A stretch of DNA of 64,000 nucleotides from an uncultured Candidatus Rokubacteria bacterium (lineage in GTDB: Bacteria > Methylomirabilota > Methylomirabilia > Rokubacteriales > DASRDR01), in the NCBI GenBank assembly GCA_963708025.1, contig CAVPSB010000044.1, positions 64,001 to 128,000 of the forward strand. The letters are read 5' to 3'. Under the pieces are notes generated by a model. The model saw only the letters and a program-made list of their open reading frames with translations, had not been told where the DNA came from and searched no databases. Position numbers and translations under genes: made by a program. This document shows, in pieces, positions 705-61,691 of the stretch. Within the stretch, counting starts at the first letter, position 1; each line of letters begins with the position of its first letter.

Positions 705-794
705 CGGGACCTCCCGCCTACCCCCCCCGCCCCCCTCCCCCACGGCGAGACGGCCTCCGGCCTTTGGCCGGGGGGGAGGGGGGAGCCGGAGCCC
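704..794. repeat. Family C element, copy 1
   Basis: TCGGGACCTCCCGCCTACCC plus C-run/G-run hairpin plus CGGAGCCC; upstream of lpxK. Confidence 0.8.
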
Positions 795-859
795 GCGGCG
801 GCATCACACACGGTCCTCTGGGGAGAGGGAACGCTGGACGAACCGATTGCATCACCCTC

Positions 860-2143
860 TCACGACGGATCGCCGGCGCTTCCCTCCGGGTGGAGGAGCG
901 CCTCCAGGGCCTCGATCGTCCGGGCGCAGGCACCCTGGTGGGCCCGCACCGCCGTCCACGCGGCCTCGCCCAGCCGCTGGCGCGCCCCGGGGTCCCCGAG
1001 GAGCGTCCGAAGCGTCGGGGCCAGCTCCGCGGCGTCCCGGAGCTGGATGCCGGCGCCGGCCTTCAAGAGCAGGGTGGCCGCGTCGCGGAAGTTCCCCATG
1101 TAGGGCCCGAAGACGACGGGCTTGGCGTGCAGTGCCGGCTCGATCACGTTGTGGCCGCCGATCGGCACCAGGCTCCCACCGACGAAGATGACGTCGGCCA
1201 CCGCGTACAGGGCAGCCAGCTCACCGACCGTGTCGAGGAGGATCACGTCGCTCGGCGCGGCGCCGGCGAGCCGGCTCCGCCGGACCGGCGCGAATCCCCG
1301 CTCGCGCGCCAGCGCCTCGACCTCGTCGACCCGCTCCGGATGGCGCGGGGCCAGGATGAGACAGAGCGCCTCCCCGCCCCGCCGCAGCTCGCCGAAGGCG
1401 TCGAGGACCGTCGCCTCCTCTCCCCGGTGGGTGCTCCCCGCGATCCAGATGCGCTCCGTGCCGAGATGAAGGAGATTCCGCCACAGGCGGTCGGCGCCCG
1501 CCTCGCCGTGCGGCGCTTCCATCTTGAGGTTCCCCGTCACCACCACGCGGTCGGGTCGCGCGCCGAGGGCGATGATCCGGCGGGCGTCTTCCTCGGACTG
1601 CATGGCACAAAGGGCCACATGATCGAGCACGCGGCGAAAGAGTCGCCGGACCCGCAGGTAGCGCCGGAACGAGCGATCCGAGATCCGCCCGTTGGCGAGC
1701 ACGGCCGGCACCCCGCCGGTGTGCAGCGCCCGCAGGAGGTTTGGCCACAGCTCGGTCTCCAGCGCGATGAAGCAGCGGGGCCGGACACGCCGGACGGCGC
1801 GCCGCATCGCGCCGCCCAGGTCCAGCGGGAAGACGAACGCCGCCGCCGCGTCGGAGAGGCGCGCGCGGGCCACCCGGTCCCCGGTCGCGGTCACGGTGGA
1901 GAGCACGACCTCCACATTGGGCCAGCGCCGGCGGAGGGCGTGGACGAGAGGGACGGCCGCCATCACCTCTCCCACCGAGACGGCATGGACCCAGAAGCGC
2001 TGCGGGCCCGGCGCCAGCGGCACGAAGCCGAATCGCTCGGCGAGCGCCAGCGGATAGCCGCCCCGCCACACCTTCCGGACCAGGAAGACTGGCAGGTAGC
2101 CGAGACCCAGCAGCGTGAGACCGGCGCTATAGAGCGCGTACAC
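860..2143 (-). CDS. waaA: Kdo transferase
   Basis: WVHAVSVGE, ETELWPN, GNLK, IAGSTH, APRHPER and GGHNVIEPA motifs. Confidence 0.96.
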   Translation of the reverse strand: MYALYSAGLTLLGLGYLPVFLVRKVWRGGYPLALAERFGFVPLAPGPQRFWVHAVSVGEVMAAVPLVHALRRRWPNVEVVLSTVTATGDRVARARLSDAAAAFVFPLDLGGAMRRAVRRVRPRCFIALETELWPNLLRALHTGGVPAVLANGRISDRSFRRYLRVRRLFRRVLDHVALCAMQSEEDARRIIALGARPDRVVVTGNLKMEAPHGEAGADRLWRNLLHLGTERIWIAGSTHRGEEATVLDAFGELRRGGEALCLILAPRHPERVDEVEALARERGFAPVRRSRLAGAAPSDVILLDTVGELAALYAVADVIFVGGSLVPIGGHNVIEPALHAKPVVFGPYMGNFRDAATLLLKAGAGIQLRDAAELAPTLRTLLGDPGARQRLGEAAWTAVRAHQGACARTIEALEALLHPEGSAGDPS

Positions 2144-2900
2144 GGCAGACGCCGGCCAAGCGGTCGGCCTCGGTGGTGAGACGGTGGAGGGACTCCTCGA
2201 GGCGACGGCGGCAGGCCTCGATGGTCTCCCGGTCGGCGTCCTCCGGCACCACCAGCGGATCGCCGAAGACCACCACGACGCGGGCGAACGGGTGCGGGAC
2301 GACGAAGGCGTCCCAGGAGCCGAGGACCGTGCTCCGCGACACCCCCAAGCCTACCGGGATGATCGGCGCCCGACCGAGCTTGGCCAGCAGCACGGCACCC
2401 GGCTGCGCCACGTACCGGGGGCCGCGGGGACCGTCGGAGGCCACCGCCACCTCGGCGCTCTCGTCCCGGAGGAGGCGGGCCAGAGCCCGGAGCGCCGTGG
2501 ACGCGCCGCGCGAGGACGAGCCGCGCACGACGCGAAAGCCGAAGGCGCCGGCGAAGCGGCTCATCAGCTCGCCGTCGCGCGATCGGCTCGCCAGCATGTA
2601 GACGGAGCGCCGCCGCCCGTAGAAGTACGGGAACATCAGCAACCGGCCGTGCCAGACCGCGTAGACCACGGGGGCTCCGGCGGCCCACAGCCGGTCGATG
2701 GTCTCGCGGTTCGCCTCGGTCAGACGGAGGGTCGCCCCGAGGAGCCGGACCGCGCGAATGCCGAGGGCCAAGCTCACACCCAGCGTGAGTCGCTCGCGCC
2801 AGCTGAGGGGCCGCCCAGCGGTCGGCAGGGCCCGGCGCCCCCGTCGGGCCGCAGCGCTCGTCACCACCTCACCCGATCGTCGGTCCTCACCCCCGCTCAT
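2127..2900 (-). CDS. DUF374 / lysophospholipid acyltransferase-family protein
   Basis: WHGR, SRSRDGE, VRGSSSRG and DGPRGP motifs, typical neighbour of waaA. The longer ORF start lies inside a repeat, so the start is uncertain. Confidence 0.85.
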   Translation of the reverse strand: MSGGEDRRSGEVVTSAAARRGRRALPTAGRPLSWRERLTLGVSLALGIRAVRLLGATLRLTEANRETIDRLWAAGAPVVYAVWHGRLLMFPYFYGRRRSVYMLASRSRDGELMSRFAGAFGFRVVRGSSSRGASTALRALARLLRDESAEVAVASDGPRGPRYVAQPGAVLLAKLGRAPIIPVGLGVSRSTVLGSWDAFVVPHPFARVVVVFGDPLVVPEDADRETIEACRRRLEESLHRLTTEADRLAGVCRVRAL

Positions 2901-2977
2901 GACCGCTCGCCACCAGGTGTTCGACTCCAGGGTCCTCGAAGCGCCGACGACGTGGCCGCTGAGTTCAAGTTCGCAGG

Positions 2978-3118
2978 GCAGGGCCGAGGAGCGAGCAGCG
3001 CTAGGACGCAGGGCGTCGCCGACCGCAGGCGTATGCCGCATACGCCGAGGATGGGCGACGACCCCAGAGGCCGAAGGCCGTCCGATCGACGACGCGATGC
3101 GAAGCTCATCGGCCCTGC
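2978..3118. repeat. Family A palindromic element, copy 1
   Basis: Terminal IR GCAGGGCCGA / TCGGCCCTGC; near-identical to 27022 and 61525; contains the lpxB stop. Confidence 0.92.
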
Positions 3119-4251
3119 GCGCTCTCCCGCAGCACCGCCCGGGCCGCGCGCTCTATCGCGCCGCTGGGTCCCAGCCGCGCCCGCACGTCCCGGAGCGCCG
3201 CGCGCTGGGCGACCCGGGCCGCGTCGTCCTGCAGGAGGCCGAGCGCGACCTCGGCGAGGCGGGCGGGCGTGGCCCGGCCCTGGATCAGCTCTGGCACCGC
3301 AGCCCGTCCGGCGATGATGTTGGGGAGGCTGATCGCCGACACCCCACGCACGAGCACGCGGGCCAGCGCGTAAGTCAGGGTCGACAGCCGGTAGAGGACG
3401 ACCATCGGTGTCCCGTAGCAGGCGGCCTCGAGCGTCGCGGTGCCGGAGGCGACGAGGAGGAGGTCGGCCGCGGCCATCACCCGATGGGCCTGGCCGTCGA
3501 GGACGGACACGCCCAGCCCCGACGCCTCCACCGGCCCCGCCACCGCCGCGGTCGGGATCGTGGAGGCTCGGGGCAGGACGAAGCGAGCCCGGGGCAGCTC
3601 CCGGCGGATGTGGGTGGCGGCGCCCAGCAGCACCGGCAGGTGGCGGCGGACCTCCTCGGCGCGGCTGCCCGGCAGGAGCCCGATCAGGAGAGCCCGCTTG
3701 CCGCCGAGGCCGCGCCGGGCCTCGGCACGCTCGAGGACCGGCAGCTCGTCGAGCAGCGGATGCCCGACGAACTCCACCGGGACTCCGGCCTCCTGGTAGA
3801 GCGGGACCTCGAACGGGAAGACCGCGAGCACGCGGGAGACGTCGCGAGCCATGCTCCGCACCCGCCCCGGTCGCCACGCCCACACCTGGGGCGCCATGAA
3901 GTACACGACCGGGATGCCGAGGATCCGGGCCCGGCGCGCCAGCCGCAGGTTGAACTCCGGGAAGTCGATGGGGACCAGCACCCTCGGGCGATCGGTCGCG
4001 AGGCACCGGGCCAGATCGCGGAAGATTCTCCAGAGCGCCGGGAGCCGGCCCAGCACCTCGGTCCCCCCGACCACCGCCGCCCGCTCGATGCCGTGGAGGA
4101 TCCGCACGCCGGCGGCTTCCATCCCGGCGCCGCCCATGCCGGCCAGCGCGAGACCCGGCGCCAGGCCGGTGAGCGCGCGGGCGAGCGTGGCGCCGTGGAG
4201 ATCGCCGGAGGCTTCCCCGGCGACGAGGAGCACGTCAATCGGTCGCGCCAC
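3106..4251 (-). CDS. lpxB: Lipid-A-disaccharide synthase
   Basis: VAGEASGDLHG, IDFPEFN, PQVWAWR, FVGHPL, LPGSR and SGTATLE motifs. Confidence 0.96.
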   Translation of the reverse strand: MARPIDVLLVAGEASGDLHGATLARALTGLAPGLALAGMGGAGMEAAGVRILHGIERAAVVGGTEVLGRLPALWRIFRDLARCLATDRPRVLVPIDFPEFNLRLARRARILGIPVVYFMAPQVWAWRPGRVRSMARDVSRVLAVFPFEVPLYQEAGVPVEFVGHPLLDELPVLERAEARRGLGGKRALLIGLLPGSRAEEVRRHLPVLLGAATHIRRELPRARFVLPRASTIPTAAVAGPVEASGLGVSVLDGQAHRVMAAADLLLVASGTATLEAACYGTPMVVLYRLSTLTYALARVLVRGVSAISLPNIIAGRAAVPELIQGRATPARLAEVALGLLQDDAARVAQRAALRDVRARLGPSGAIERAARAVLRESAQGR

Positions 4252-5053
4252 CCCCGGCGACCCCGACAATGCTGATGCCCGCCTGCTCCGCGTGAGCGGC
4301 GATCACATCCCGGTCCAGGAGCAGCACGCGGCCGGCTTCCACGGCCACCGCGGCGGCCCGCCCCTCGGCGCAGAGGGCGAGAGTGGCGGCGCCGACGGCG
4401 GGCACGTCGAACCGGTAGTCGTGACCCGGGGCGGTGGCCTTCGCCACGACCGCGCCGGGCCCGGCCAGCCGGAGGCCCCGCCGAATGGCCTCGTCCGTCC
4501 CCTCCATGGCCTCGACGGCGGCCACGGAGCCGGCGCGGACAACGACGGTCTGGCCGATCCCCAGGCGGGCCAGCTCGCGAGCCACTGCGAGGGCGCGTCC
4601 GATGTCGCTCCAGACGGCGTCCGCCGGGGACGGCCCCGCCACCAGCCCGGGCGGAGCCAGCCACGGCTCGAGGAAGCGACGCTGGTCGAGCAGCTCGATG
4701 CCCAGCTCGGCGAGCGCCGAGGTCGCCGTGCGCAGGAGGGCCTCGTCGGTCCAGTCCGGGCTCCGGTCCACCAGCGCCCGCGCGGTCGCGTCGATTGCCA
4801 TTCCCTGGAACAGGCCGTCCTTGCTGAGACCACCGGCGAGCACGACGTGGCGGATGCGCTCCCCGGTCAGGACGTCGAAGATCGGGCCAACCTCCCCCAG
4901 GTGGACCGGCACCACCCGGTCCGCCGCGTCCCGGAGCGGGCCCGGCTCGCTGAGCGCGAAGGCGACGACCCGCCAGCCGGCCCGCCGCGCCTCCCGGGCC
5001 ATCAGGGCGGGCAGGCCGCCGGCCCCGCCGACCAGCCCGAGGCTATCCGACAT
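4235..5053 (-). CDS. lpxI: UDP-2,3-diacylglucosamine hydrolase LpxI
   Basis: GLVGGAGGLP, IGQTVVV, AVEAMEGTD and RFDVPAVG motifs; lipid A context. Confidence 0.9.
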   Translation of the reverse strand: MSDSLGLVGGAGGLPALMAREARRAGWRVVAFALSEPGPLRDAADRVVPVHLGEVGPIFDVLTGERIRHVVLAGGLSKDGLFQGMAIDATARALVDRSPDWTDEALLRTATSALAELGIELLDQRRFLEPWLAPPGLVAGPSPADAVWSDIGRALAVARELARLGIGQTVVVRAGSVAAVEAMEGTDEAIRRGLRLAGPGAVVAKATAPGHDYRFDVPAVGAATLALCAEGRAAAVAVEAGRVLLLDRDVIAAHAEQAGISIVGVAGGGATD

Positions 5054-5110
5054 GGTCCTGTCCGAGCCGACACGGCAGCCGGCCGGACGTGGTACCGGGC
5101 CACCCCCCGC

Positions 5111-6115: not shown

Positions 6116-6151
6116 GCTCGCCAGTCTCCCAAGCGATGGGTCGTTGGCGGC

Positions 6152-7992: not shown

Positions 7993-8013
7993 GACGGCGC
8001 CCGCGGCCCCCCC

Positions 8014-18264: not shown

Positions 18265-18267
18265 CGG

Positions 18268-19806
18268 CTACCTCCGGCGCCCGGCCCAGGCCCGCGCGGC
18301 GAGCGCGGCCAGCGTGGCGGCGGCGCAGCCGTACGCGAAGACGTCCCCGAAGCGGGTGTAGAAGGTCGGCCGGCCGGCCAGCGGCGCCTCGACCCGGAGG
18401 ACGCCCCGGCGAGAGAGCGCCAGCTCGGGGCCGATCCGACCGTCGGGGCCGACCAGCGCGGAGACGCCGGTGTTGGCGGCCCGCACGACGGCCACACCGT
18501 TCTCGACGGCCCGCAGCGGCACCATGGCCAGATGCTGGAGGGGGCCGCTCGACTCCCCGAACCAGGCGTCGTTCGTGATGTTCACCATGAACCTCGCGCC
18601 CTCCCGGACGAACCCACGGAAGAGGTCCGGGAAGATGACCTCGTAGCAGATGACCGTTCCGAACGGCGCCCCCTCGAGGGGGAACACCACCCGGTCGCGA
18701 CCGGGGGTGAAGTCGCCGATCTCGGCCGCAAGCGCTTCCACGAAGAACAGCAGTCCTCTCAGGGGCACGTATTCCCCGAAAGGCACGAGATGGATTTTAT
18801 CATAGCGGGTCTGGAGACCCTCCGCGCGGACCAGGAACGCGCTGTTGAGGAAGTGGGTCGTCGCGCCCTCTTGGCGGGCGTCGGGGGCGCCGACGAGGAG
18901 CGGGGTGCCCAGTTCGCCGGCCAGTCGGGTCAGCCAGTCGATGACCCCCGGCTCGTAGGTGAGGTAGGCCGGCACCGCCGCTTCCGGCCAGACGACCAGC
19001 CGGCTCCCGGGGGTGACCTGCCGGGTCAGCTCGGCGTGGGTCTCGAGCGTGGCCCACCGGGAGGCCTTCTCCCACTTGATGGCCTGGTCGATGTGCCCCT
19101 GCACGATGCCGACCGGAACCGTCCCGGTCTCCGGCGCCGACCGGGACGCGCCGACCGCCAGCGTGGCACCGACGGCGACCCCGACGACCGCCGCGCTCAC
19201 CGCCATGGCCGGCCGACTGCGCCGCACGAGCACCCACGCCAGCGCCGTGTTGCTCAGCGCGAGCAGGAACGAGACGCCGTACACGCCCGTCCAGGCGGCG
19301 ATCCCGATCAGCTCGAGCCGTCGGTACGGGACGTAGCCGAGCAGGCCCCACGGGAAGCCGCTGAAGACATAGGTGCGGGCCAGCTCGCTCGATACCCAGA
19401 ACGGCGGGGTCAGCCACACCGCCCCTGGGCCCAGGCGCGTCCCCAGCAACGCGACCGCGAAGGCCACCGCGCCCACGTAGAGCGCGCAGTAGGCGGCGAG
19501 CGCGAGCAGCAGCAGGATCGCCAGAGGCCCGGAGAGGCTCGAATAGTGGGTCATCGAGTGGGTGATCCAGCGGAGGAGCGGGAGGAAGAACCCGAGGCCC
19601 GCGAGCCAGCCTTCGAGGAAGGCCCGGCCCGGCGACCGGGCGGTGGCGGCGAGGGCGAACACGGGAGCGAGCGCCACCCAGCCGAGCAGATCCCACGCGG
19701 GTCGCGGATAGGCGAGGTGCAGAGCGAGCCCGGCGCCGGTTGCCACGAGGACCCGCCTGATCGATTCGGCTCCGCTGCCCCCTTCCCGTGTGATGTGAGG
19801 ACTCAA
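18268..19806 (-). CDS. lnt: Apolipoprotein N-acyltransferase
   Basis: GFPW, WPE, YDKIHLVPFGEY, ICYE, TNDAWF and RAANTG motifs; start uncertain. Confidence 0.95.
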   Translation of the reverse strand: MSPHITREGGSGAESIRRVLVATGAGLALHLAYPRPAWDLLGWVALAPVFALAATARSPGRAFLEGWLAGLGFFLPLLRWITHSMTHYSSLSGPLAILLLLALAAYCALYVGAVAFAVALLGTRLGPGAVWLTPPFWVSSELARTYVFSGFPWGLLGYVPYRRLELIGIAAWTGVYGVSFLLALSNTALAWVLVRRSRPAMAVSAAVVGVAVGATLAVGASRSAPETGTVPVGIVQGHIDQAIKWEKASRWATLETHAELTRQVTPGSRLVVWPEAAVPAYLTYEPGVIDWLTRLAGELGTPLLVGAPDARQEGATTHFLNSAFLVRAEGLQTRYDKIHLVPFGEYVPLRGLLFFVEALAAEIGDFTPGRDRVVFPLEGAPFGTVICYEVIFPDLFRGFVREGARFMVNITNDAWFGESSGPLQHLAMVPLRAVENGVAVVRAANTGVSALVGPDGRIGPELALSRRGVLRVEAPLAGRPTFYTRFGDVFAYGCAAATLAALAARAWAGRRR

Positions 19807-19846: not shown

Positions 19847-19990
19847 GTCGGCTTCTCGCAACGGGTTGATTGCCGTTCTCACGCTCGAGGAGTCCCACTC
19901 CGGGCCGCGGCCCAAAGGCCGAAGGCCGTCCATCAGTCGCGGCCTCCGAGGAGGGGGCAGCGGGGGGTCTTCCGAGACCCCCCGGAGAAA
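19847..19990. repeat. Family B element, copy 1
   Basis: GGCTTCTCGCA...GCCGCGGC stem...GGGGGGTCTTCCGAGACCCCCC; abuts the stop at 19991. Confidence 0.85.
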
Positions 19991-21138: not shown

Positions 21139-21174
21139 CTGTTCGGGACCTCCCGCCTACCCGATCCTTCGACC
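21139..21174. repeat. Family C element, copy 2 (partial)
   Basis: CTGTTCGGGACCTCCCGCCTACCCGATCCTTCGAC upstream of nusB. Confidence 0.75.
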
Positions 21175-21245
21175 TTTTTCCGAGACCCCACGAATGTTCT
21201 CAGAGTCTGCGAACCAATGCCTCAGGCTCCTTGATCCCACCACGC

Positions 21246-21356
21246 GTCGGCTTCTCGCAACCCTCTGACTCTGGCCCCGCGGCCGTGGCGTTCCACTTCG
21301 AGCCGCGGCTTCGCCGCGGCGTCCGAGGGGGGGCTTCCGAGACCCCCCCGGAGATC
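21246..21356. repeat. Family B element, copy 2
   Basis: Same blocks as copy 1; abuts the ribH stop. Confidence 0.85.
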
Positions 21357-21863
21357 TCAGCCCCGGGCCGGGCGCCGGCGCGGGCGGCCGCCCAGGCTCT
21401 GGAAGAGTCCGACCAGCTCCAGCGCGGCCAGCGCCGCCTCCTCGCCGCGATTGCCGACGCGGCCCCCGGCCCGCTCGACGGCCTGCTCCTGAGTGTTGGC
21501 GGTGATGACCCCGAAGGTCGCCGGCACGCCGGTCAGCCGTGCCACCTCCCCGATCCCCCGGGCCGCCTCGCCGGCCACGTACTCGAAGTGCGGTGTCTCG
21601 CCCCGGATCACGCAGCCGACGCAGACCAGCGCGTCGACCGCCCGATGCCGCGCCAGGGCCAGGGCGACCTGCGGGAGCTCGAAGGCGCCCGGCACCCAGA
21701 CGACCAGGACGTCCTTGTCGGCCACGCCGTGCCGGCGGAGCGTCTCGCGGGCGCCGTCGACCAGACGCTTGCCGATCTCCTCGTGAAAGCGCGAGGCGAC
21801 GATCGCGAAGCGCCGGCCGCGGGCCGACAGCCCGGCCCGGGCCCCGGGGGCTCTTCCCGCCGT
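21357..21863 (-). CDS. ribH: 6,7-dimethyl-8-ribityllumazine synthase
   Basis: VPGAFELP and IRGETPHFEYV. The frame extends upstream of the called GTG (GLSARGRRFAIVASRFHEEI); putative ACG start at 21863. Confidence 0.92.
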   Translation of the reverse strand, partial: TAGRAPGARAGLSARGRRFAIVASRFHEEIGKRLVDGARETLRRHGVADKDVLVVWVPGAFELPQVALALARHRAVDALVCVGCVIRGETPHFEYVAGEAARGIGEVARLTGVPATFGVITANTQEQAVERAGGRVGNRGEEAALAALELVGLFQSLGGRPRRRPARG

Positions 21864-21864
21864 T

Positions 21865-21950
21865 TGGGACCTCCCTCCTACCCGATCCTTCGACGGCCTT
21901 CGGCCTTTGGCCCCCCTCCCCCACCCACTGGGGGGAGGGGGGGGCCGGAG
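21865..21950. repeat. Family C element, copy 3
   Basis: GGGACCTCCCTCCTACCCGATCCTTCGAC plus module plus C/G hairpin; upstream of ribH. Confidence 0.8.
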
Positions 21951-21994
21951 AAGCTGTCGGGACGAGCGCGAGGAGACGATTCGTTCACGGGCCC

Positions 21995-27021: not shown

Positions 27022-27147
27022 GCGGCGGGGCCGAGGAGCGAGCAGCGCTAGGACGCAGGGAGTCGCCCACCGCAGGCGTATGCCGCATACGCCGAGGATG
27101 GGCGACGACCGAGGACGACGCGATGCGAAGCTCATCGGCCCCGCCGC
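27022..27147. repeat. Family A palindromic element, copy 2
   Basis: 13-bp terminal IR abutting the smc stop codon. Confidence 0.92.
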
Positions 27148-38429: not shown

Positions 38430-38666
38430 CGTCCCGGGCCGCGGCCCGGGCCCCGCCCGTAGGCCGAAGGCCGTCCGAAGGACGCTGCGACGAGGCGGGC
38501 CGAGGCGTGGGCCGCGATCGACCACCTGCTCGCGACGTCTCGGGGCAGCGGCCCTCGCGACGTCGCTCACCTGTGGGAGACCCGCCGACGGCCCCACAGG
38601 CCGGGACGTCCGCGGCCCGGCCGAGATGAACGGACGACGCGGGGCGACGGGCCCCGGCCCGGGACG
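38430..38666. repeat. Large multi-stem palindromic element (A-like architecture)
   Basis: CGTCCCGGGCCG / CGGCCCGGGACG ends, 3 nt from a stop codon; contains the 20-nt module core. Confidence 0.7.
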
Positions 38667-44722: not shown

Positions 44723-44847
44723 GGCTTCTCGCAGCGTGCTTCTGCCGGCCTCGCGGCTATGGTGTTCCGCTCCGCGCCGCGGCTTCGCCGCGGCCTCTGA
44801 GGGGGGGGGGGAATCGGGGGGGTCTTCCGAGACCCCCCCGAAAGGTT
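44723..44847. repeat. Family B element, copy 3
   Basis: Same blocks as copy 1; abuts the HIT gene stop. Confidence 0.85.
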
Positions 44848-45198
44848 CTAGCGGCGCTCGACCCGCCGCTCCTGCAGGCGGCCCGCCATGAAGTGCAGGT
44901 GGAGGTGGTGGACGTGCTGGCCGCCCTCGGGCCCGCAGTTGATCGCCAGCCGGTAGCCTCGCTCGGCAAAGCCCAGCGCCTCGCCCAGGTGCTTGGCCGT
45001 CAGGACGAGCCGCGCCACGACGTCGGCGTCGGCAGGGGTGAGGGTCATGACCGACTCGACGTGGCGCTTCGGGATGACGAGGAGGTGAACCGGCGCCTTG
45101 GGGTAGATGTCCCGGAAGGCGAGGACCTGGTCGTCCTCGTACTCGATGTCGGCGGGCGCCTGGCGCGCGACGATCTGGCAGAAGAGGCAGGTCGCCAC
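44848..45198 (-). CDS. HIT-family nucleotide-binding protein
   Basis: CLFC, HLLVIPKRH and HLHLH motifs; GTG start at 45198. Confidence 0.92.
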   Translation of the reverse strand: MATCLFCQIVARQAPADIEYEDDQVLAFRDIYPKAPVHLLVIPKRHVESVMTLTPADADVVARLVLTAKHLGEALGFAERGYRLAINCGPEGGQHVHHLHLHFMAGRLQERRVERR

Positions 45199-46192: not shown

Positions 46193-46239
46193 GACCGGGA
46201 CCGTGGCGGCGCCGGGCACGAGCGCGGAGCGGATGGTCT

Positions 46240-46334
46240 CTGTTCGGGACCTCCCGCCCACCCCCCAGCCCCCCGTCCCCCAGTGTCTGGACGGCCTTCG
46301 GCCTGTGGCGGGGGGGAGGGGGGTATCGGAGCCC
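46240..46334. repeat. Family C element, copy 4
   Basis: CTGTTCGGGACCTCCCGCCCACCC...CGGAGCCC upstream of the HD-GYP gene. Confidence 0.8.
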
Positions 46335-46344
46335 CTGCCTACTC

Positions 46345-48783
46345 TCACGATTTGACGGGGAGGTTGACGGTGAACCAGGTGCCCCGGTCCACCTCGCTCT
46401 CGACGGAGATCTTGCCGCCCAGGAGCTGGACCAGACGCCGGGTCACTGTCAGCAGCAGGCCGGTTCCCGGCAGCTTCCGGGTGCCCCGGGGGGCCACCAG
46501 GAGAAACGGCTCGAAGAGCTTCGCCTGCTCCTCGGTGGTGAAGCCGGCGCCGTCGTCCGCCACCGTCAGCACGACCTCGGGGCCCTTGAGGTAGCAGCTG
46601 ACGCGGATCTCGCCGAGCTCGGTGTACTTCGCCGATGTCGTCACGAGGTTCGTGAGGATCTGCTCGACGCGCCGGGCGTCGGAGACCACCTGGCCGACCT
46701 CGGGCTTGACGTCGGTCACGATGCGATTGCCGCGGGCGGCCGCCCGCGGCTGGAGGGTCCGCACGATCCGCTGGACCATCTCGGGCAGGTTGAACGACGC
46801 CCTGGCCGTCTTGAGCTGCTGGCCGTTGATGGCGGAGAGCGTCACCAGGTTGTCGATCAGCTCGATGATCTCCTCGCCGCGGGTGTGCAGGATCTCGAGC
46901 TGCTGCTGGGCCTCGGCCCCCAGCGGCTTCTGGATCCCGTCGAGCAGGAAGCGTGGCAGGTCGAGGAGTGCCGTGAGCGGGCCTCGCAGCTCCTCGCTGA
47001 CCGTCTTCTGGAGCTGCGCCCGCATCCGCTTGGCCTCCTCCGCCGCCGGGTCCATCCGGATGACTTCTTTGATCTGCACCGTGGGCTGGACCTGCATCCG
47101 GATCGTCTGCTGCAGCTCCTCGGTCTGGCGCCGGGCCGCCTGGGCCTGCCGGTCCGCCTCCGCTTTCTCCATCGCGGCCTTCTGCAAGGCCTCCATCTGC
47201 TCGGCGACCTTCGCCTCGAGGCCCACGGTGTTCCGGCGGACGTCCTCCAGCGCCCGCTCGTGCTCGAGGGCCTGGGTCGTGCGGCGCGCCATCGCCTCCA
47301 ACCGCTGGACCTCGCCGTCGGTGAAGGTGTGGGGGTTCCGGTAGCCGACCTCCACCGCCCCGATCACCCGCTCCCCCGAGAGAACCGGCACGGCGGCGAG
47401 GGAGCGCAGGCCGATCGCCCTGATGTAGGGCTCCTCGACCCGGTAGTCGCCCTCGACGTCTTCGATGAGGATCGCCTCCCGCCCGCCCATCACGGCGCCC
47501 GCCAGCCCCTGGCCGCGTCGGAGCACGCCGTCCGTCGGCGTGGCGCCGAAGCCGACCGCCGCCTTGGTGACCAGCCCGGCGTCCTCCTGCACGACGAGGA
47601 CGCCGGCGTCGGCTCCCATGCCGACCACCATCTTCCGGAGCAGCTCCGGCAGCACGGCGCTGACCGAGCGATCGCTGCCGATCGCGGCGCCGGCCGCCTC
47701 CTCGACCTGGCTGACGGCCTCGTGCTCGCGCTGCTTGTTCCGGAGCCAGCCGACCACCCGGTTGAAGGATTCGGTGAGGGCGCCGACCTCGCCGCCGGCC
47801 GTGAGCGGGATGGTCGTCGGGAGGTCACCCGTCTCCAGCCGGCTCATGGCGGCGCGCAGCCGGCCCATCCCGGCCGCGGTCCGCCGGGCCATGGCGAGGG
47901 CGAGGGCCAGACTCAGGACCGCGATGACCGCCACACCCCCGGCGACCTGGGCCAGCAGGCTCCGCGCATCCGCGAGGACCTGCGCCGAGGGATGGCCGAC
48001 CGCCAGCACCCAGCCGACCGGACGGATCGGCGCCGTCCCGCCTAGCCGCATCTCGCCGTCCGCGAACACGATCTCCCCGGTCGTCTGGCGCTCCCGGGTC
48101 TCGGCCCCGCCCGGGACGCTCTGCATGAGGAAGAGGCTGGGCTGGCGGGCGACGACCACGCCCCGGTCCGTCATAACCTCCGCGACCGTGCCCTCCCGCA
48201 GGCGGCCGCGGGCGAGGAGATCCTGGAAGCGTCGCAGGTTGAGGTCGCCCGCGACGACTCCCCGGAACTGGTTGTCGGCGGTGCGGACCGCGGTGTAGAC
48301 GCCGACGGTGACGTCCTGGCCCGGTTGCCGGGGCTCGCCGATGAAGGGCTGGGTCGAGGTCGCCGCCCGCTTGAACCACTCCTGGTCGCCCAGCACCGGT
48401 CGACGACCCTCCGGCTGGCCACCGGCGGCGGCGATTACCGCGCCGACGGGGTCCAGCACCAGCACCTGGTCGAAGTCGGGGTAGGTCTGGCGGAGGCGGC
48501 GGGCCTGAGCCTCGGCGGCGGCCGGGGTAGCGCCGGCGGCGGCGACCGCGTCCGCGGCGGCGCCGATGCCGTCGACTCGCGCGGTCAGATGCCCCTCGAG
48601 CTGGGTCGCCAGCGCGCGGGCCTGGCTCAGGCCCTCCTGCTGGACGCGCCCCTTCTCCCGGCCGACCTGGGCGTAGCCGAAATAGGAGAAGAGCGCAAGG
48701 AAGGGGAGGATGCTGGCGAGCGCGACCGCCAGAAAGGTCCGGCGGAGCGAGCCGCGGCCCCCTCCCCCGGCCGCCCTCGGCAT
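46345..48783 (-). CDS. Membrane sensor with Cache-like, HAMP, GAF and degenerate HisKA/HATPase domains
   Basis: Two TM segments, HAMP (EVGALTESFN), GAF, H-box SEELRGPL, DDGAG and GTWF. Confidence 0.85.
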   Translation of the reverse strand: MPRAAGGGGRGSLRRTFLAVALASILPFLALFSYFGYAQVGREKGRVQQEGLSQARALATQLEGHLTARVDGIGAAADAVAAAGATPAAAEAQARRLRQTYPDFDQVLVLDPVGAVIAAAGGQPEGRRPVLGDQEWFKRAATSTQPFIGEPRQPGQDVTVGVYTAVRTADNQFRGVVAGDLNLRRFQDLLARGRLREGTVAEVMTDRGVVVARQPSLFLMQSVPGGAETRERQTTGEIVFADGEMRLGGTAPIRPVGWVLAVGHPSAQVLADARSLLAQVAGGVAVIAVLSLALALAMARRTAAGMGRLRAAMSRLETGDLPTTIPLTAGGEVGALTESFNRVVGWLRNKQREHEAVSQVEEAAGAAIGSDRSVSAVLPELLRKMVVGMGADAGVLVVQEDAGLVTKAAVGFGATPTDGVLRRGQGLAGAVMGGREAILIEDVEGDYRVEEPYIRAIGLRSLAAVPVLSGERVIGAVEVGYRNPHTFTDGEVQRLEAMARRTTQALEHERALEDVRRNTVGLEAKVAEQMEALQKAAMEKAEADRQAQAARRQTEELQQTIRMQVQPTVQIKEVIRMDPAAEEAKRMRAQLQKTVSEELRGPLTALLDLPRFLLDGIQKPLGAEAQQQLEILHTRGEEIIELIDNLVTLSAINGQQLKTARASFNLPEMVQRIVRTLQPRAAARGNRIVTDVKPEVGQVVSDARRVEQILTNLVTTSAKYTELGEIRVSCYLKGPEVVLTVADDGAGFTTEEQAKLFEPFLLVAPRGTRKLPGTGLLLTVTRRLVQLLGGKISVESEVDRGTWFTVNLPVKS

Positions 48784-51913: not shown

Positions 51914-51989
51914 TGGTGGAGGGTAAGGGAGTTGAACCCTCGACCTCTGGAGTGCGATTCCAGCGCTCTCCCAACTGAGCTAACCCCCC
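51914..51989 (-). tRNA. tRNA-Ala(CGC)
   Basis: 76-nt cloverleaf with G3:U70, anticodon arm CTGGA-AT-CGC-AC-TCCAG and encoded CCA; TGGACA-N18-TATCGT upstream. Confidence 0.96.
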
Positions 51990-54489: not shown

Positions 54490-54536
54490 GGGTGACCTCA
54501 TGATAGCACGCGGCCGGCCCCCCGGGCCGCCGTCCG

Positions 54537-55478: not shown

Positions 55479-56273
55479 CTTCCCTCCGGCGCGGCAGCTT
55501 CCAGTGTGCGCAGGGCCTCCTCGCGGATGAGCTGCATGACCCGGCGCTTGAGCATGACGAAGGCCTCCGAGGTCAGGTGGTCCACGGTGCGGGGCCGGGG
55601 CAGCGGGACCTGGATCTCCTCGCGGATCCGCCCCGGCCGGGCGGTCATGACGAGGACGCGGTCGGCCAGGAACAGCGCCTCGTCGATGTCGTGGGTGACG
55701 AAGAGCACGGTCTTCGCGGCCTCCCCCCAGACGCGGAGGAGCAGCTCCCCCATCAGGGCGCGGGTCTGGGCGTCCAGCGCGCCGAAGGGCTCGTCCATGA
55801 GGAGCACGGCCGGGTCGTTGGCCAGCGCGCGGGCGATCGCCACCCGCTGCATCATGCCCCCGGACAGCTCCCGGGGGTAGACGTGCTCGAAGCCGCGGAG
55901 GCCGACCTGGCCGATGTAGCGGTGGGCCAGGGTCTCCCGCTCGCCGGCCGGCAGCCCCCGGAGGCGCGGCCCGAACTCGACGTTGCGCTTGACGGTGAGC
56001 CAGGGGAAGAGCGTGTAGGCCTGGAAGACCATCCCGCGGTCGGCCCCGGGGTCGGTGACCGGACGGCCGTCGAGGAGGACGCGGCCGCTGGACGGCGGGA
56101 CGAGCCCGGCCACCAGGCGGAGGATCGTCGACTTGCCGCAGCCCGAGGTGCCCACCAGGACGGCGAACTCCTGGTCTTCGACCTCGAAGCTCACGTCGTC
56201 CAGCGCGGTGATCGACCTCGCCCCGGCGCGTCCGGTACCGCATCGTGAGCCGCTCGAGGGTCAGCCGCGCCAC
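55475..56273 (-). CDS. NitT/TauT ABC ATPase, with an apparent +1 insertion at about 56214
   Basis: [13 protein letters not shown] and DEPFGALD motifs. The N-terminus [13 protein letters not shown] is in the adjacent frame. Confidence 0.9.
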
Positions 56274-56298
56274 GGACCGCGCTCCGGCGCCGGGAAGG

Positions 56299-57784
56299 CT
56301 AGCCGGTCTGCTGCCGGGGATGGTCGGCGGCGACCTCGGCCCACGGACTGCCGCCGAGGAGCCGTTCCAGCACGCGCTCGACATCCGCGAGCGGCACGCG
56401 GATCTGCTCCATCGAGTCCCGGTCGCGGATGGTCACCTTCCCGTCCCCCTGCTCTCCCTTGGCCGCGTCGCCCACCGTCTGGACGTCCACGGTGACGCAG
56501 TAGGGCGTGCCGACCTCGTCCTGGCGCCGGTAGAGCCGCCCGATGGCGGCGGTGTCGTCGTAGACGGCGACCCAGCGCCGGGCGAGCCGGTCCCGGAGCG
56601 CCCAGGCCCGGGCGACGATGTCGTCCCGCTTCTTGAGGAGCGGCAGCACGGCGATCTTCACCGGCGCGATCTCGGGATGGAAGCGGAGGACCACGCGCTT
56701 CTCCCCGCGCACCTCCTCGGCGTGGTAGGCGTCGGTCAGGAAGGCCAGGAGGCTCCGGTCCACCCCGGCCGCCGGCTCGATGACGAACGGGACGACGTGG
56801 GTCTTCCGCTCGTCGTCGAAGTAGCGTGAGCGACTTCCCGCTCACCTCGGCGTGGCGGCGGAGGTCGTAGTCGGTGCGGTTGGCGATCCCCTCCAGCTCG
56901 CTCCAGCCGATGGCGAAGTGGTACTCGACGTCCACGCACCGCTTGGCGTAGTGGGCCAGCTCGTCCTTGCCGTGCTCGCGGAGCCGGATGTTGTCGGCCT
57001 GGATGCCGTAACGCTGGTACCAGGCGAAGCGCTCCTGGATCCAGACGTCGTGCCAGTGCTCGTCGGCCGGCTGGCCGTCCACGGTGTCGAGCGGGCTCAC
57101 GAAGAACTCCAGCTCCATCTGCTCGAACTCGCGGGTGCGGAAGATGAAGTTCCCCGGCGTGATCTCGTTCCGGAAGCTCCGGCCGATCTGGGCGATGCCG
57201 AACGGGAGCTTGCGCCGCGTGGCCTGCAGCACGTTGTCGAAGTTGACGAACATGCCCTGGGCCGTCTCCGGCCGGAGGTAGGTCGCGGCCGCCTCGTCCT
57301 CCACCGGGCCCAGGAAGGTCTTCAGCATCAGGTTGAACTGCCGGGGCTCGGTCAGCTCGCCCTTGCCACACTCGGGGCAGAGCGTCCGCCGGGCGCCGCA
57401 GTGCTTGCACGGCTCGCCGGCCGGCACCTCGAACTTGTTGTCCTTCTTGGCCGGGCAGTAGTGCACCCACGTCTGGCTGTCCAGGTGGTCGGCCCGGAAG
57501 CGGCGCTTGCAGGCCCGGCAGTCCACCATCGGGTCGCTGAACCGCTCGACGTGGCCGCTGGCCTGCCAGACCCGGGGGTGCATGAGAATGGCCGCTTCCA
57601 GCCCGACCACGTCGCGGCGGAGGTGCACCGTGTCGCGCCACCAGAGGTTCCGGATGTTGCGGCGCAGCTCGACGCCCAGCGGGCCGTAGTCCCATGAGGA
57701 GCCGAGGCCGCCGTAGATCTCGCTGGACTGGAAGACGAAGCCCCGCCGCTTGCACAGCGAGACGAGCGTGTCCATGTCGACCAT
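56299..57784 (-). CDS. glyQS: Glycyl-tRNA synthetase, alpha2 type, with an apparent +1 insertion at about 56825
   Basis: [22 protein letters not shown] and REFEQME. The C-terminal RRQDEVGTP is in a second frame. Confidence 0.94.
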
Positions 57785-57836
57785 GAGGGAGAGCCTAGCA
57801 CACGGGGCGAGCGCCCGCCACGCGGGCCGCTCCATT

Positions 57837-57932
57837 CCCTCTCCCCCGCCGGGGGACAGGGTCAGGGTGAGGGGGTCCTCCCGCGCCACGCATCGACCCT
57901 CACCCCGACTCTCTCCCTGGAAGGGAGAGGGA
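57837..57932. repeat. Family D (CCCTCACCC...CTCTCCC...GGGAGAGGG) inverted pair
   Basis: Oppositely oriented copies at 57837-57875 and 57897-57932. Confidence 0.8.
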
Positions 57933-57940
57933 GAGGAGGG

Positions 57941-58732
57941 TCAGCCCGCCTTGGGGGACCAGGGCAGGAGCCAGCGGTGGAGGTACTTGAAGCACTGGTC
58001 GGTGGCGAGGCCGAGGAGCCCGATCACCATGATGCCCACGAAGATGCGATCGACGAAGAACCCGCGCATGGAGTTCAGGATCATGTAGCCGAGGCCCCGC
58101 TGAGCCGCGACCAGCTCGGCCACCACCAGGTACGTCCAGGCCCAGCCCATGGTGATGCGGAGGGTGTCCATCACCCCGGGCAGAGTCGCCGGGATGAGCA
58201 CCCGGGACACCACCTGCCCCCGGCCCGCGCCCAGGGTGTACGAGACGTCGAGGAGGTCGCGCGAGACGTGGGCCGAGACGTCCGCGATGAGGATCATCTG
58301 CTGGAAGAAGGTGCCGATGAAGATGACGGCGACGCGGGCCTCGTAGTCGATCCCGACCCACAGGATCAGGAGGGGGATCATGGCGCTGACCGGCAGGTAG
58401 CGGACGAAGTTCACGACCGGCTCCAGCGTGGCCTCGGCCAGCGGGAACGAGCCCATGAGGATGCCGAGCGGGACGGCCAGGATCGAGGCCATGGCGAAGC
58501 CGGTGAAGATCACGAAGCAGGACGCGCGGATGTGGATCCACAGGGTGCCGTCGCCGACGAGCTCGATCCCGGTCTCCACCACCCGGTGGGGTGCGGGCAG
58601 GAAGTCGGCCCGCACGAGGCCGCCGTAGGTGAGGAGCGCCCAGCCACCGAGCATCGCCACGACCGTGAGGCCGCTGGCCGCCAGGTAGACGCGCGGCGGG
58701 ATCGGCTCCTTCGGCTTGAGCCAGGAGGTCAT
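57941..58732 (-). CDS. NitT/TauT ABC permease
   Basis: FLPAP, RYLP, TLGA and WTYLVVAE motifs. Confidence 0.9.
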   Translation of the reverse strand: MTSWLKPKEPIPPRVYLAASGLTVVAMLGGWALLTYGGLVRADFLPAPHRVVETGIELVGDGTLWIHIRASCFVIFTGFAMASILAVPLGILMGSFPLAEATLEPVVNFVRYLPVSAMIPLLILWVGIDYEARVAVIFIGTFFQQMILIADVSAHVSRDLLDVSYTLGAGRGQVVSRVLIPATLPGVMDTLRITMGWAWTYLVVAELVAAQRGLGYMILNSMRGFFVDRIFVGIMVIGLLGLATDQCFKYLHRWLLPWSPKAG

Positions 58733-58737
58733 CGAGC

Positions 58738-58777
58738 CCCCTCACCCTGCCCTCTCCCCCGAGGCGGGGGAGAGGGA
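58738..58777. repeat. Family D single copy
   Basis: CCCTCACCCTGCCCTCTCCCCC-gaggc-GGGGGAGAGGG between the SBP and permease genes. Confidence 0.8.
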
Positions 58778-58796
58778 TTCGATCGCAGGGCGAGCG

Positions 58797-59768
58797 CTAC
58801 TTCACGAAGGAGTGGTTGACCAGGTCCTTGGCGGTGACGCCCTTGGCCTGGAGCTTGCCGAAGCTCGCCCAGATGTCGAGGGCGTTCTGGACCACCTTGT
58901 TGATGTCCCCCGGCTTCTGGGCGGTCCCGAAGAACTTGACGTTGCCGTCCCGGTTGTAGAACTTCACGCCGTCGAGCGTCTCGGCGAAGACCTTCGGGTC
59001 CTTCAGCCAGTCGCCGAGGCCCTTGGACATGATCTCGAGCGACTCCGGCTTGTTCTTCTCGTAGTAGGCCACCGCCTTGTTCCAGGCGTTGACCACGCCC
59101 TGGATCTCCTTGCCGCGCTTGGCGATCACCTCGCGGGGGAAGATCAGGACGTCGCTGATGAGCCCGGGCGTCTTCGACGAGTCCACCAGGATCTGGCCGT
59201 GGGGGGCGTTCTTGCTCTTGGTGAGCCAGGGCTCCCAGGTGACGGCGGCGTCCACCTTCTCGGCGACGAACGCGGCGCCGGCATCCCCCTGCTTCATGTT
59301 GACGACCTCGATGTCCTTCTGCGACATCCCGGATTCCTTCAGGATCACGTTCAGGAAGAACTGGGAGACCGAGCCCTCGTTGACCGCGACCTTCTTGCCC
59401 TTCAGGTCCTTGACCGACTTGATCTCCTTGCGGGCCACGATGCCGTCCCCGCCGGCCGAGTCGTCCAGGGCCAGGACGTACTGGTACTCCTTGCCGGTCT
59501 TCAGGTAGAGGACCATGGTGTCGATCGTCGAGACCACGCCGTCGAGCCGCCCGGCGGCCAGGGCGAAGAAGCCCTCCTTGGGGTCCTCGATGTTGACCAG
59601 GTCGACGTCGACCTTCTCTTCCTTGAAGAAGCCCTTCTCCTTGGCGATGAAGAGCGGGCCGTACCCCACCCAGATCGAGTACCGGATCTTCAGGGGCTCG
59701 GCCGCCGCCACCGTCGACAGACCGGCGACCACCACGACCACCAGCACCCACGCGAGCCATCGTTTCAT
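58797..59768 (-). CDS. NitT/TauT/NMT1-type ABC substrate-binding protein
   Basis: Signal peptide, WVGYGPLFIA, SAGGDG and TWEPW motifs. Confidence 0.9.
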   Translation of the reverse strand: MKRWLAWVLVVVVVAGLSTVAAAEPLKIRYSIWVGYGPLFIAKEKGFFKEEKVDVDLVNIEDPKEGFFALAAGRLDGVVSTIDTMVLYLKTGKEYQYVLALDDSAGGDGIVARKEIKSVKDLKGKKVAVNEGSVSQFFLNVILKESGMSQKDIEVVNMKQGDAGAAFVAEKVDAAVTWEPWLTKSKNAPHGQILVDSSKTPGLISDVLIFPREVIAKRGKEIQGVVNAWNKAVAYYEKNKPESLEIMSKGLGDWLKDPKVFAETLDGVKFYNRDGNVKFFGTAQKPGDINKVVQNALDIWASFGKLQAKGVTAKDLVNHSFVK

Positions 59769-59794
59769 GGCGTTCCTCCCTTGGAGACGGACGG

Positions 59795-61036
59795 TCAGTG
59801 AACGGAGGGCCGGAGCCCGAACACATCGTGGGCCCGCCGCAGCCCGGCGGCCAGCGCCTCGATGTCCTGGGGCGTCGTGTAGACGGAGAAGCTCGCGCGG
59901 GTCGTGCCGGCCACGCCGAGCCGCCGCGCCAGCGGCTGCGCGCAGTGGTGCCCGGCCCGCACGGCGATGCCTTCGGTATCCAGCGCGGCCGCCAGGTCGT
60001 GCGGGTGGATGCCAGCCAAGTTGAACGAGACCACCCCCACGCGCAGCGCCGGGTCCCGCGGGCCGTAGAGCGTGAGGTCCTCCACCTCGCCGAGCTCGGC
60101 CAGCGCCTGGCGAGTCAGCGCGGCCTCGTGGGACTGGATCGCGTCCCAGCCCAGGGCCTCGAGGTAGTCGATGGCCGCGCCGAGGCCGATCGCCTGGGCG
60201 ATCGGGGGCGTGCCCGGCTCGAAGCGCCACGGGAGGTCGTTCCAGGTGACCCGATCCAGCCAGACCTCCTTGATGATCTCGCTCCCGCCGAAGGCGGGCT
60301 CGAGCGGCTCCATGATCTCCCGGCGGCCGTAGAGGACGCCAATCCCGGTCGGCGCGCCCAGCTTGTGACCCGACAGCGCGTAGAAGTCGACGCCGAGGCC
60401 GGCCACGTCCAGCGGCAGGTGCGGCGCGGCCTGGGCCCCGTCGATCAGGACCCGCGCCCCCGCGGCCTGGGCGCGCTCGACCAGCTCGGCCACCGGGTTC
60501 ACGGTGCCCAGCACGTTCGACACGTGCGTGAGCGCCACCAGCCGGGTCCGCCGCCCGAGTAGCTGGTCGAGCCCCGACAGGTCCAGCAGCCCGTCGTCGG
60601 TGACTGGGATGTAGCGGAGCTTCAGCTTGAGCTCGCGGGCCAGGAGGTACCAGGGCACCAGGTTCGAGTGGTGCTCCATCTCGGTGAGGAGGATCTCGTC
60701 CCCTTCGACCAGGGCCCGCCGGGCCCAGGTGTGGGCGACCAGGTTGATCGCCTCGGTCGTCCCCTTGGTGAAAACGATCTCCTCGCGGTGGCGAGCGCCG
60801 AGGAAGCCCCGGACCCGGTCCCGGGCCGCCTCGAACATCTCCGTCGCCTCTTCGCCGAGCGTGTGGATCGAGCGATGGACGTTGGCGTTGGAGCGCTCGT
60901 AGTAGGCGCGCAAGACGTCGAGGACGGCCCGCGGCTTTTGGGCGGTCGCCGCCGAGTCGAGGTAGACGAGCCGCCGCCCCCCGATGGTCCGCTCGAGGAT
61001 CGGGAAGTCGCCGCGAACCCGCTCGCCGAGCGTCAC
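59795..61036 (-). CDS. sufS: SufS-type cysteine desulfurase
   Basis: YLDSAAT, EHHSN, DGAQ, SGHK and RAGHHCA motifs. Confidence 0.93.
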   Translation of the reverse strand: MTLGERVRGDFPILERTIGGRRLVYLDSAATAQKPRAVLDVLRAYYERSNANVHRSIHTLGEEATEMFEAARDRVRGFLGARHREEIVFTKGTTEAINLVAHTWARRALVEGDEILLTEMEHHSNLVPWYLLARELKLKLRYIPVTDDGLLDLSGLDQLLGRRTRLVALTHVSNVLGTVNPVAELVERAQAAGARVLIDGAQAAPHLPLDVAGLGVDFYALSGHKLGAPTGIGVLYGRREIMEPLEPAFGGSEIIKEVWLDRVTWNDLPWRFEPGTPPIAQAIGLGAAIDYLEALGWDAIQSHEAALTRQALAELGEVEDLTLYGPRDPALRVGVVSFNLAGIHPHDLAAALDTEGIAVRAGHHCAQPLARRLGVAGTTRASFSVYTTPQDIEALAAGLRRAHDVFGLRPSVH

Positions 61037-61413
61037 GCCCGCACGGGAGCGCCGGCCAGGGCGGCGCGCAGGACGTCCAGGGGCAGCGTCACGCAGCGGA
61101 GCCGTGAGGAGCGGATCTCGGCCTGGAGGGCGCGGAGGAGCGTGTCCCGGTCCACCCGCAGGGCCTCCCGCACCGGCCGGCCCTCCACCATCTCGGCCAG
61201 CAGGTCGGCGGACGCCAGCGCGATCGCGCAGGCGTCGCCCCGGTAGCGGACCGCCCCGATCTCGGCGCCGGGATCGAGCCGCACCTCGACCCGGATCCGG
61301 TCGCCGCAGAGCGGGTTCACGTCCTCGTGGACCGCGTCGGGAGCGTCCAGCTCGCCGAGGTAGCGGGGGTGCCTGAAGCGGTCGAGGATGACGTCGCTGT
61401 AAAGCGTGGCCAC
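61033..61413 (-). CDS. sufU: SufU/IscU-like scaffold or sulfur acceptor
   Basis: NPLCGD, CAIALAS and RLRC motifs; GTG start at 61413. Confidence 0.85.
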   Translation of the reverse strand: MATLYSDVILDRFRHPRYLGELDAPDAVHEDVNPLCGDRIRVEVRLDPGAEIGAVRYRGDACAIALASADLLAEMVEGRPVREALRVDRDTLLRALQAEIRSSRLRCVTLPLDVLRAALAGAPVRA

Positions 61414-61524
61414 GGGGTCACCGTAGCACACACGTCCCGTTCGGGCAACTCGGGAGCGGAGTTACGACGCGGAGTGCCTAGACGGTTTGAAGTCTCAAAG
61501 CCCTCGCAGAGTCACGTTTTCGTG

Positions 61525-61691
61525 GGGCAGGGCCGAGGAGTGAGCAGCGCCCACAGGCCGAAGGCCGTCCCGAAGGACGCAGGGAGTCGCCGACCGCGGG
61601 CGTACTCCTGTACGCCGAGGATCGGCGACGACCCCAAAGGCCGAAGGCCGTCCGAAACGACGACGCGATGCGAAGCTCATCGGCCCTGCCC
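61525..61691. repeat. Family A palindromic element, copy 3
   Basis: 12-bp terminal IR abutting the TAG at 61691-61693; carries two 20-nt modules. Confidence 0.92.

Follow-up and report, generated by a model that had tools for sequence, protein, structure and literature searches.

A 20-nt hairpin module, optional in a few fixed slots of unrelated intergenic repeats, in Candidatus Rokubacteria

Mosaic intergenic repeats have been well described in a few cultured groups of bacteria, namely enterobacteria, pseudomonads, pneumococci, and mycobacteria. The BOX elements of Streptococcus pneumoniae, for example, have the layout boxA-boxB(n)-boxC. Repetitive extragenic palindromic (REP) sequences are arranged as REPINs in inverted doublets (93% of 430 doublets; PMC3116915), a rayt gene is flanked by REPs of its own (PMC2817692), and mycobacterial interspersed repetitive units (MIRUs) show a -4-nt coupling at gene overlaps (PMC12548453). 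Here we describe a 20-nt hairpin-forming sequence, the module, that recurs between genes in a 64,000-nt stretch of DNA (the window) from an uncultured Candidatus Rokubacteria bacterium (assembly GCA_963708025.1, contig CAVPSB010000044.1, positions 64,001 to 128,000), and we compare the repeats that carry it with these systems.

We favor the view, to which we assign a probability of about 0.6, that the module is a portable hairpin cassette in a mosaic system of structured intergenic repeats and has spread mostly together with the repeats that host it. The cassette is optional, and within the one clade of Candidatus Rokubacteria that has it, its fixed slots are few. The system, from an uncultured soil phylum, is very dense, with ~700 host elements in three families and ~530 cassettes in 8.2 Mb; a single 20-nt hairpin is common to unrelated hosts and to a second genus, and the genome contains no HUH enzyme. 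Its natural series of filled and empty slots bears on two questions: whether template switching, conversion, or an unknown enzyme carries short hairpins from repeat to repeat, and whether such hairpins alter what becomes of operon transcripts. On the practical side, such repeats, together with contigs from a second haplotype, affect the assembly and binning of genomes of this kind. We came across no account of these repeats in the literature on Rokubacteria and Methylomirabilota, with subscription journals and supplements lying outside the search.

A hairpin module in optional slots

The module has the consensus CCA(A/C)AGGCC-GAA-GGCCGTC(C/G). The window contains 7 instances of its 11-nt core, GGCCGAAGGCC (0.23 expected), a count reached in 0 of 100 shuffles, and the 20-mer at up to 3 mismatches has 9 matches against 0.13 expected. 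Eight of these nine are the copies listed by the first-pass annotation of this DNA, which had placed all of them in intergenic repeats; our own crude gene map (7342 open reading frames, ORFs) bears this out, as all eight lie between predicted genes. The ninth match, at 60922-60941 on the minus strand with 3 mismatches, is within a predicted gene and was regarded as chance. Across the 8.17-Mb assembly (71% G+C, 49 contigs, 99.67% complete), the core is found 634 times and the exact 15-mer 501 times, split 248 and 253 between the strands. Seven patterns with the same stem and other loops are present 71-164 times each and two more 0 and 8 times, so that the genome-wide enrichment which the annotation had proposed as a check is evident.

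A logo of 633 copies has a sharp 5' edge and reads CC-A-(A/C)-A-GGCC-GAA-GGCC-G-T-C-(C/G). Some 8 bases 3' of the module are more weakly conserved and often form a second hairpin, CGTCC-GAA-GGACG, which brings the unit to ~27 nt. Of the 633 copies, 529 are module-like with conserved flanks, and those borne by repeats are intergenic almost throughout. The predicted stability of the module hairpin is -3.4 kcal/mol as DNA with standard parameters (z -1.6) and -6.0 as RNA, and stem covariation in the genome gave 452 canonical stems, a figure into which the short anchors let some noise. An Rfam gathering scan of the whole window returned nothing matching the module, its sole above-threshold match being a tRNA gene (51917-51989, minus strand). 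A sub-threshold match to a plant miRNA in an Rfam E-value scan of 600-3300 was taken as chance, and a search of viral contigs gave 0 matches.

The repeats that host the module were defined by flank clustering and by searches with host anchors that exclude the module itself. Family A, with ~163 copies, consists of terminal inverted arms around a hairpin block, X1, and further blocks, with the module at the joints. The arms, GGGCGGGGCCGAGGAGCG and CGCTCATCGGCCCCGCCC, pair in folds and constitute terminal inverted repeats, which were demonstrated for family A only and not for families B and C. Among the 156 copies having both ends, 55 carry no module, 54 carry one, 40 carry two, 6 carry three, and 1 carries four. 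The first three states are all represented in the window, as first reported: the plus-strand element at 27028-27141 has both slots empty; the one at 2981-3115 (plus strand; arms at 2981-3000 and 3099-3115) has slot A1 empty and slot A2 filled by the module at 3064-3083 (plus strand); and the one at 61530-61686 (plus strand) has both slots filled, A1 at 61551-61570 and A2 at 61634-61653 (both plus strand), with the latter 83 nt after the former, the second commonest spacing genome-wide. A further plus-strand module at 38457-38476 has a divergent 5' end, CCGTA; after it come GAAGGACG and an X1-like block, an arrangement shared with variants of family A.

Family C is the largest, with 441 copies, and is intercistronic, running from the TGA of the upstream gene through a C-run/G-run hairpin to a Shine-Dalgarno (SD)-like tail, GGGCGGGAGGTCCCGAAC. 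It carries 0, 1, 2, or 3 modules in 288, 98, 49, and 6 copies, respectively. A predicted start codon lies 4-14 nt downstream of the tail in 88 of the 441 copies, which is a hint only because start-codon calls are crude, and the element contains in-frame stops and the SD-like tail rather than a coupled ORF. Two of the window's minus-strand family C elements hold the module where it had been reported, in the apical loop of the C-run/G-run hairpin (slot C1): one at 695-810, upstream of a gene starting near 680, with the module in its GGA loop variant at 748-767 (minus strand) and the GGCGGGAGGTCCCGAT tail at 703-718; the other at 46236-46345, in the spacer from the stop codon of a gene that ends at 46345 to the following gene, with the module at 46289-46308 (minus strand). 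In the third, at 21856-21960 (minus strand), the loop slot is empty (AGTGGGT) and the module lies at 21891-21910 (minus strand), after the G-run and before the SD-like tail (slot C2); this is the copy first described as lying beside the hairpin. Elsewhere in the genome the family C loop can contain another cassette of ~70 nt with nested hairpins including GGGCC-GTA-GGCCC (for example at G000 C12:84704), and therefore more than one cassette uses that slot.

Family B comprises 82-91 copies, depending on the anchor, and in 23 of 91 the triloop of its GCCGCGGC hairpin is replaced by the module. The contrast originally drawn within the window holds: the module at 19912-19931 takes the place of the TTC loop in the element at 19850-19990, whereas GCCGCGGC-TTC-GCCGCGGC is kept at 21302-21320 in the element at 21249-21360, and the TTC loop is likewise kept at 44776-44794 in the element at 44723-44850 (all plus strand).

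Filled and empty versions of one and the same slot, a central claim of the first-pass annotation, thus exist for A1, A2, C1, C2, and the family B loop. Slot A1 reads GCGC-TA-GGACG when empty, as in the element at 2981-3115, and GCGC-module-GAA-GGACG when filled; slot A2 reads GACC-GAG-GACGACG and GACC-module-GAAC-GACGACG; slot C1 reads RG-TG-GGT and RG-module-CAAC-GGT; and slot C2 reads YTGGGG and module-GAAGGATC. Alignment of filled with empty sites, which had been suggested as a way to find a target duplication, revealed none in any of the five slots; instead a linker of 2-7 nt is replaced, not split. Five junction classes account for 443 of the 529 module-like copies and ~4 contexts are unique, the remainder being mostly module-module junctions or indel variants of known slots. 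Furthermore, the slots differ in the module variants they hold, with CCACA in 82 of 100 A1 copies and CCAAA in 46 of 56 A2 copies; of 85 C2 copies, 75 have CCAAA and 71 have GTCG. Therefore, copies descend within slots and not from one pool.

The arrangement of the module within its hosts is regular. Its orientation relative to the host is forward in every case (161 forward and 0 reverse in family A, 211 and 0 in family C, 23 and 0 in family B; 395 and 0 in total). Folding of 10 elements of the window placed the module, as a separate 4-bp hairpin, in a multiloop (family A) or an apical loop (families B and C), and the helices of the host are uninterrupted by it in all 10, in keeping with the earlier suggestion that its position relative to hairpins is not random. 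Neighboring modules are direct repeats with preferred spacings of 38, 83, and 21 nt, and the 12 commonest spacing classes, which hold 143 of 170 neighbor pairs, are all same-strand. Spacings of 20-21 nt number 32, and at G000 C15:314285-314668 there are 16 tandem 21-nt units of a variant ending in GGAT, inside a composite family A-like element.

Slot occupancy also assorts freely with the host. Block X1 exists in two subtypes (e.g., window 3010-3063 and 61582-61633), GTACTCCGAGTAC versus GTATGCCGCATAC, which also differ as GCCGACC...GGATCGGC versus GCCCACC...GGATGGGC. Because these differences are linked and preserve pairing, they suggest selection or conversion that maintains the hairpin. Within the ACT subtype, both slots are empty in 25 elements, only A2 is filled in 8, only A1 in 18, and both in 21; the corresponding counts in the ATG subtype are 10, 4, 4, and 7. 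Every one of the 8 possible pairings of slot state with subtype is therefore present, and the idea of a combinatorial repeat system is upheld. Sequence identity gives no clear difference in age between module (0.976-0.982) and host (0.978 for the right arm, 0.927 for X1).

Hosts and module in a second haplotype and in relatives

Several small contigs of the assembly (C46, C41, C39, C40, C4, and C36) are 88-99% identical to parts of larger ones (C13, C17, C16, and C33). These seem to stem from a second strain or haplotype in the bin, which probably explains its 8% contamination figure. Four repeat loci could be compared between the haplotypes. In one of them, a family C copy lacks the module in either haplotype and is as well conserved as its flanks. 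At another locus (C13:387.5k versus C40:12.5k), the family C copy differs throughout, with 0 modules in one haplotype and 2 in the other, between flanks that are 99.75-100% identical; TGA stands on both sides of this copy, as if an ATGA stop/start overlap had once been there. At a third, where one haplotype has a family A element, the other has 24 nt in its place. In addition, a clean 131-nt family B-like insertion, adjoining the stop codon of a convergent gene, distinguishes C13:381873-382002 from C40:8086 and carries a 3-bp CTA duplication within CTAG.

The fourth of the loci compared is an insertion of ~1.3 kb belonging to the IS110 family and found in one haplotype only (C13:384217-385520 versus C40:10301-10495), a second copy of which, 98.7% identical, lies at C15:73 kb. 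In a related strain from a public run, position 19759 of the window is joined to 19991, with ~18 nt instead of the 231-nt spacer that includes the filled family B element, although this joint is not base-resolved. Short-read contigs mostly end at repeats, and only one record spanned a repeat locus. Two other joints, 3001 to 3068 and 21162 to 21910, derive from paralogous copies and were set aside as uninformative on orthologous sites. On the strength of these haplotype and related-strain comparisons, it is the hosts that appear to be mobile or unstable, and swapping one entire host copy for another can switch module occupancy.

We searched 40 related genomes, 15 from the sister genus and 25 others. 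These include one unpublished genome (G038) with 0, 1, and 0 matches to the module 15-mer, the family C tail, and the family A arm, on which no claim here depends. The count in relatives that the first-pass annotation had called for was positive: the module 15-mer is present in 14 of the 15 genomes of the sister genus at 7-68 copies, compared with 0-1 in the other 25 relatives, and control patterns gave 0-1 matches. The family C tail, with 307 matches in the genome under study, has 0-6 in each of the 40 relatives, which is the control level. Two genomes with 0 copies of the module 15-mer have variants of the family A arm (8 in G002 and 12 in G005), and both slots are empty in 12 of 12 family A elements fetched from them. 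Since the slots are empty in relatives devoid of the module, the filled state in our genome is most simply regarded as derived.

In the sister genus the module resides in a different host, which we examined at loci L081-L110 of three genomes (G010, G013, and G016). This host is a unit of ~56 nt bounded by (A/G)TGAGC and GTGAGC, with the module directly after the stop codon, and its internal frame is open from overlap to overlap in 18 of 32 copies, versus 2 and 0 in control frames. Some copies have the variant stem GGTC-GAA-GACC, in which pairing is kept. Half-units of the module are reiterated on both sides of it with a period of ~10-13 nt. With module-free family A elements in two genera and another host in the sister genus, the module and its host families are separable.

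How the cassette may have spread

If the 20-nt sequence is indeed a cassette that has spread mostly with its hosts, it would have entered each slot only a few times. Template switching between hairpin-rich repeats, or their illegitimate recombination, in the course of replication or repair is the probable route of first entry. Copies would then have multiplied through amplification of the host elements, which are themselves indel-polymorphic and resemble miniature inverted-repeat transposable elements (MITEs), while exchange or conversion between host copies of the same family would reshuffle occupancy and replication slippage could generate the 20-21-nt tandem arrays of up to 16 units.

Several points weigh against this scheme. 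Its primary step, the first entry of the cassette into a new slot, was not observed, and inspection by eye revealed only weak microhomology at the junctions, AGGAC for the A slots and GGT for C1. Despite their different hosts, two genera share an identical 19-mer, which is also ~98% conserved within slots, and a trans-acting factor that reads the module would make this easier to explain. Moreover, the free assortment of occupancy is compatible with recurrent site-specific insertion too, and module-only indels may have gone unseen, as just four haplotype loci were compared.

Alternatively, the module may be kept by selection, either as a protein-binding DNA tag or as an intercistronic or 3' RNA stem-loop involved in processing, stability, or translation, in which case its distribution would reflect function more than mobility. 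We consider this unlikely, but part of the evidence does lean toward it. The hosts are strongly oriented relative to genes: counted in co-directional spacers on the crude gene map, modules of family C are sense in 207 cases and antisense in 26, those of family A antisense in 132 and sense in 22, and those of family B antisense in 24 and sense in 4. The same counts cut the other way for RNA, because the hosts are oriented with transcription and yet the strand of the module is not constant, being sense in family C and antisense in families A and B, which makes it unlikely that the module itself acts in RNA in a strand-specific way. The location of the module between a stop codon and an SD-like motif, both in family C and in the host of the sister genus, is consistent with a function, as are the conservation of its sequence in two genera, the preservation of pairing in the variant stem of some sister-genus copies, and the fact that C-GAA-G belongs to a very stable type of DNA mini-hairpin (PMC13037366). 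On the other hand, the module is optional at every slot, its predicted hairpin is modest, and it has no Rfam match in the window.

The first-pass annotation had envisaged a minimal mobile unit that targets other palindromes, and part of that proposal stands: the module is discrete, separable from its hosts, and situated in loops or junctions, and its slots exist in filled and empty form. A stronger version would make it an actively mobile mini-element, inserted or copied in one orientation into single-stranded loops by a structure-specific enzyme of a non-HUH kind. Such mobility would readily account for the fixed orientation, the constant placement in loops or junctions, the free assortment of occupancy, the presence of the same sequence in two genera with different hosts, and the agreement between the empty state and the state found where the module is absent. 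We nevertheless think it improbable, and targeting of palindromes in general is not supported. The slots number just ~7-10, with ~4 unique contexts; slot-specific variants imply descent within slots; linkers are replaced without target duplication; neighboring modules are direct repeats; and in the sole orthologous flip the entire host copy changed along with its modules.

The search for an enzyme likewise gave no support to active mobility. The genome, at the completeness given above, contains no genes for Y1 (PF01797), TnpB, RVT_1, or DUF559 proteins, so that the DUF559-type nuclease proposed as a possible module-flanked gene has no candidate here. Genes of the IS110 (n=7) and DDE_Tnp_1 types are present; modules occur within 2.5 kb of 0 of the 7 IS110 genes, and flanks of the DDE_Tnp_1 genes were not checked. 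Modules flank 29 genes on both sides, and each of these has at most 2 paralogues, so that no multicopy gene is flanked. In the sister genus, a Y1 gene is found in 4 of 7 genomes (L117-L121; G004, G007, G009, and G010), where it is single-copy, ~320 aa long, and in conserved synteny, and none of the 5 fetched loci has a module-like sequence. Because no repeat flanks it, this gene looks domesticated rather than mobile. The suggested link to HUH nucleases of the RAYT type must accordingly be abandoned: the system is not REP/RAYT.

It is likewise improbable, although conceivable, that the cassette is the recognition hairpin of a candidate non-HUH trans-acting factor, common to two genera of Rokubacteria, that copies it strand-specifically into single-stranded loops without target duplication. 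If this doubtful possibility were true, the cassette would represent a new type of mobile module, minimal in size and with targets set by DNA structure. Finally, chance or coding by-products in a 71% G+C genome may explain the 68 of 633 cores that lack repeated flanks, 53 of which are inside predicted genes, and the single matches in 27 loci of unrelated taxa, which resemble coding sequence, but as an account of the repeat-borne copies this is refuted by a window enrichment of ~30-fold or more over shuffles, the conserved flanks of most copies, and the near-absence of control patterns, and we give it almost no credence.

Comparison with described systems

Our favored reading, a portable cassette carried mostly by its host repeats, places the system near several described classes of repeats, with BIME and BOX systems as its likeness in combinatorial working and with hosts that resemble MIRUs and MITEs. 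With REP sequences, REPINs, and RAYT it has in common a short extragenic hairpin repeat in more than 100 copies, with tandem higher-order clusters. The pairs here are direct, however, no Y1 gene is present, and the Y1 gene of the sister genus is not flanked by modules. The GT(A/G)G head is also absent from the logo; GTGG is confined to the CCACA variant, where it lies 3' of the stem on the opposite strand. Thus, three features that define REP/RAYT systems (PMC2817692, PMC3116915) are lacking: the GT(A/G)G head, the inverted doublets, and the rayt gene with its flanking repeats.

The bacterial interspersed mosaic elements (BIMEs) of enterobacteria offer a closer parallel in that they are intergenic, abundant, and G+C-rich, and combine a small palindromic unit with short motifs into composites of varying make-up (PMC2817692, PMC3184786), as the repeats described here also do. 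In contrast to BIMEs, the units described here are direct and fixed rather than alternating, lack the GT(A/G)G head and RAYT, and are nested in the loops or junctions of larger, unrelated repeats instead of alternating with linkers. As for MITEs, the family A host does have terminal inverted repeats, but the module itself shows neither a duplication nor an association with a transposase, the DDE_Tnp_1 flanks aside. The mini-hairpin d(GCGAAGC) resembles the core of the module, which contains the C-GAA-G closing pair and loop (PMC13037366), although the stability of the former is a property of an oligonucleotide and not of a genetic element, and only -3.4 kcal/mol is predicted here.

Two further likenesses concern the way in which the repeats are built into operons and vary internally. 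The resemblance to MIRUs of mycobacteria extends to the hosts only, that is, to family C and the host of the sister genus, which are intercistronic, co-oriented with the operon, tandemly variable, and located at stop/start overlaps. An ORF coupled from overlap to overlap, as in 18 of 32 copies of the sister-genus host, adds to this resemblance, and family C does not share it. BOX elements are similar in that the copy number of an internal module varies between fixed ends, and in being oriented with the transcribed strand, MITE-like, and non-autonomous (PMC3184786). The difference lies in the range of the module, for boxB belongs to one family, whereas the cassette described here has been accommodated by at least three unrelated hosts and by yet another in a second genus.

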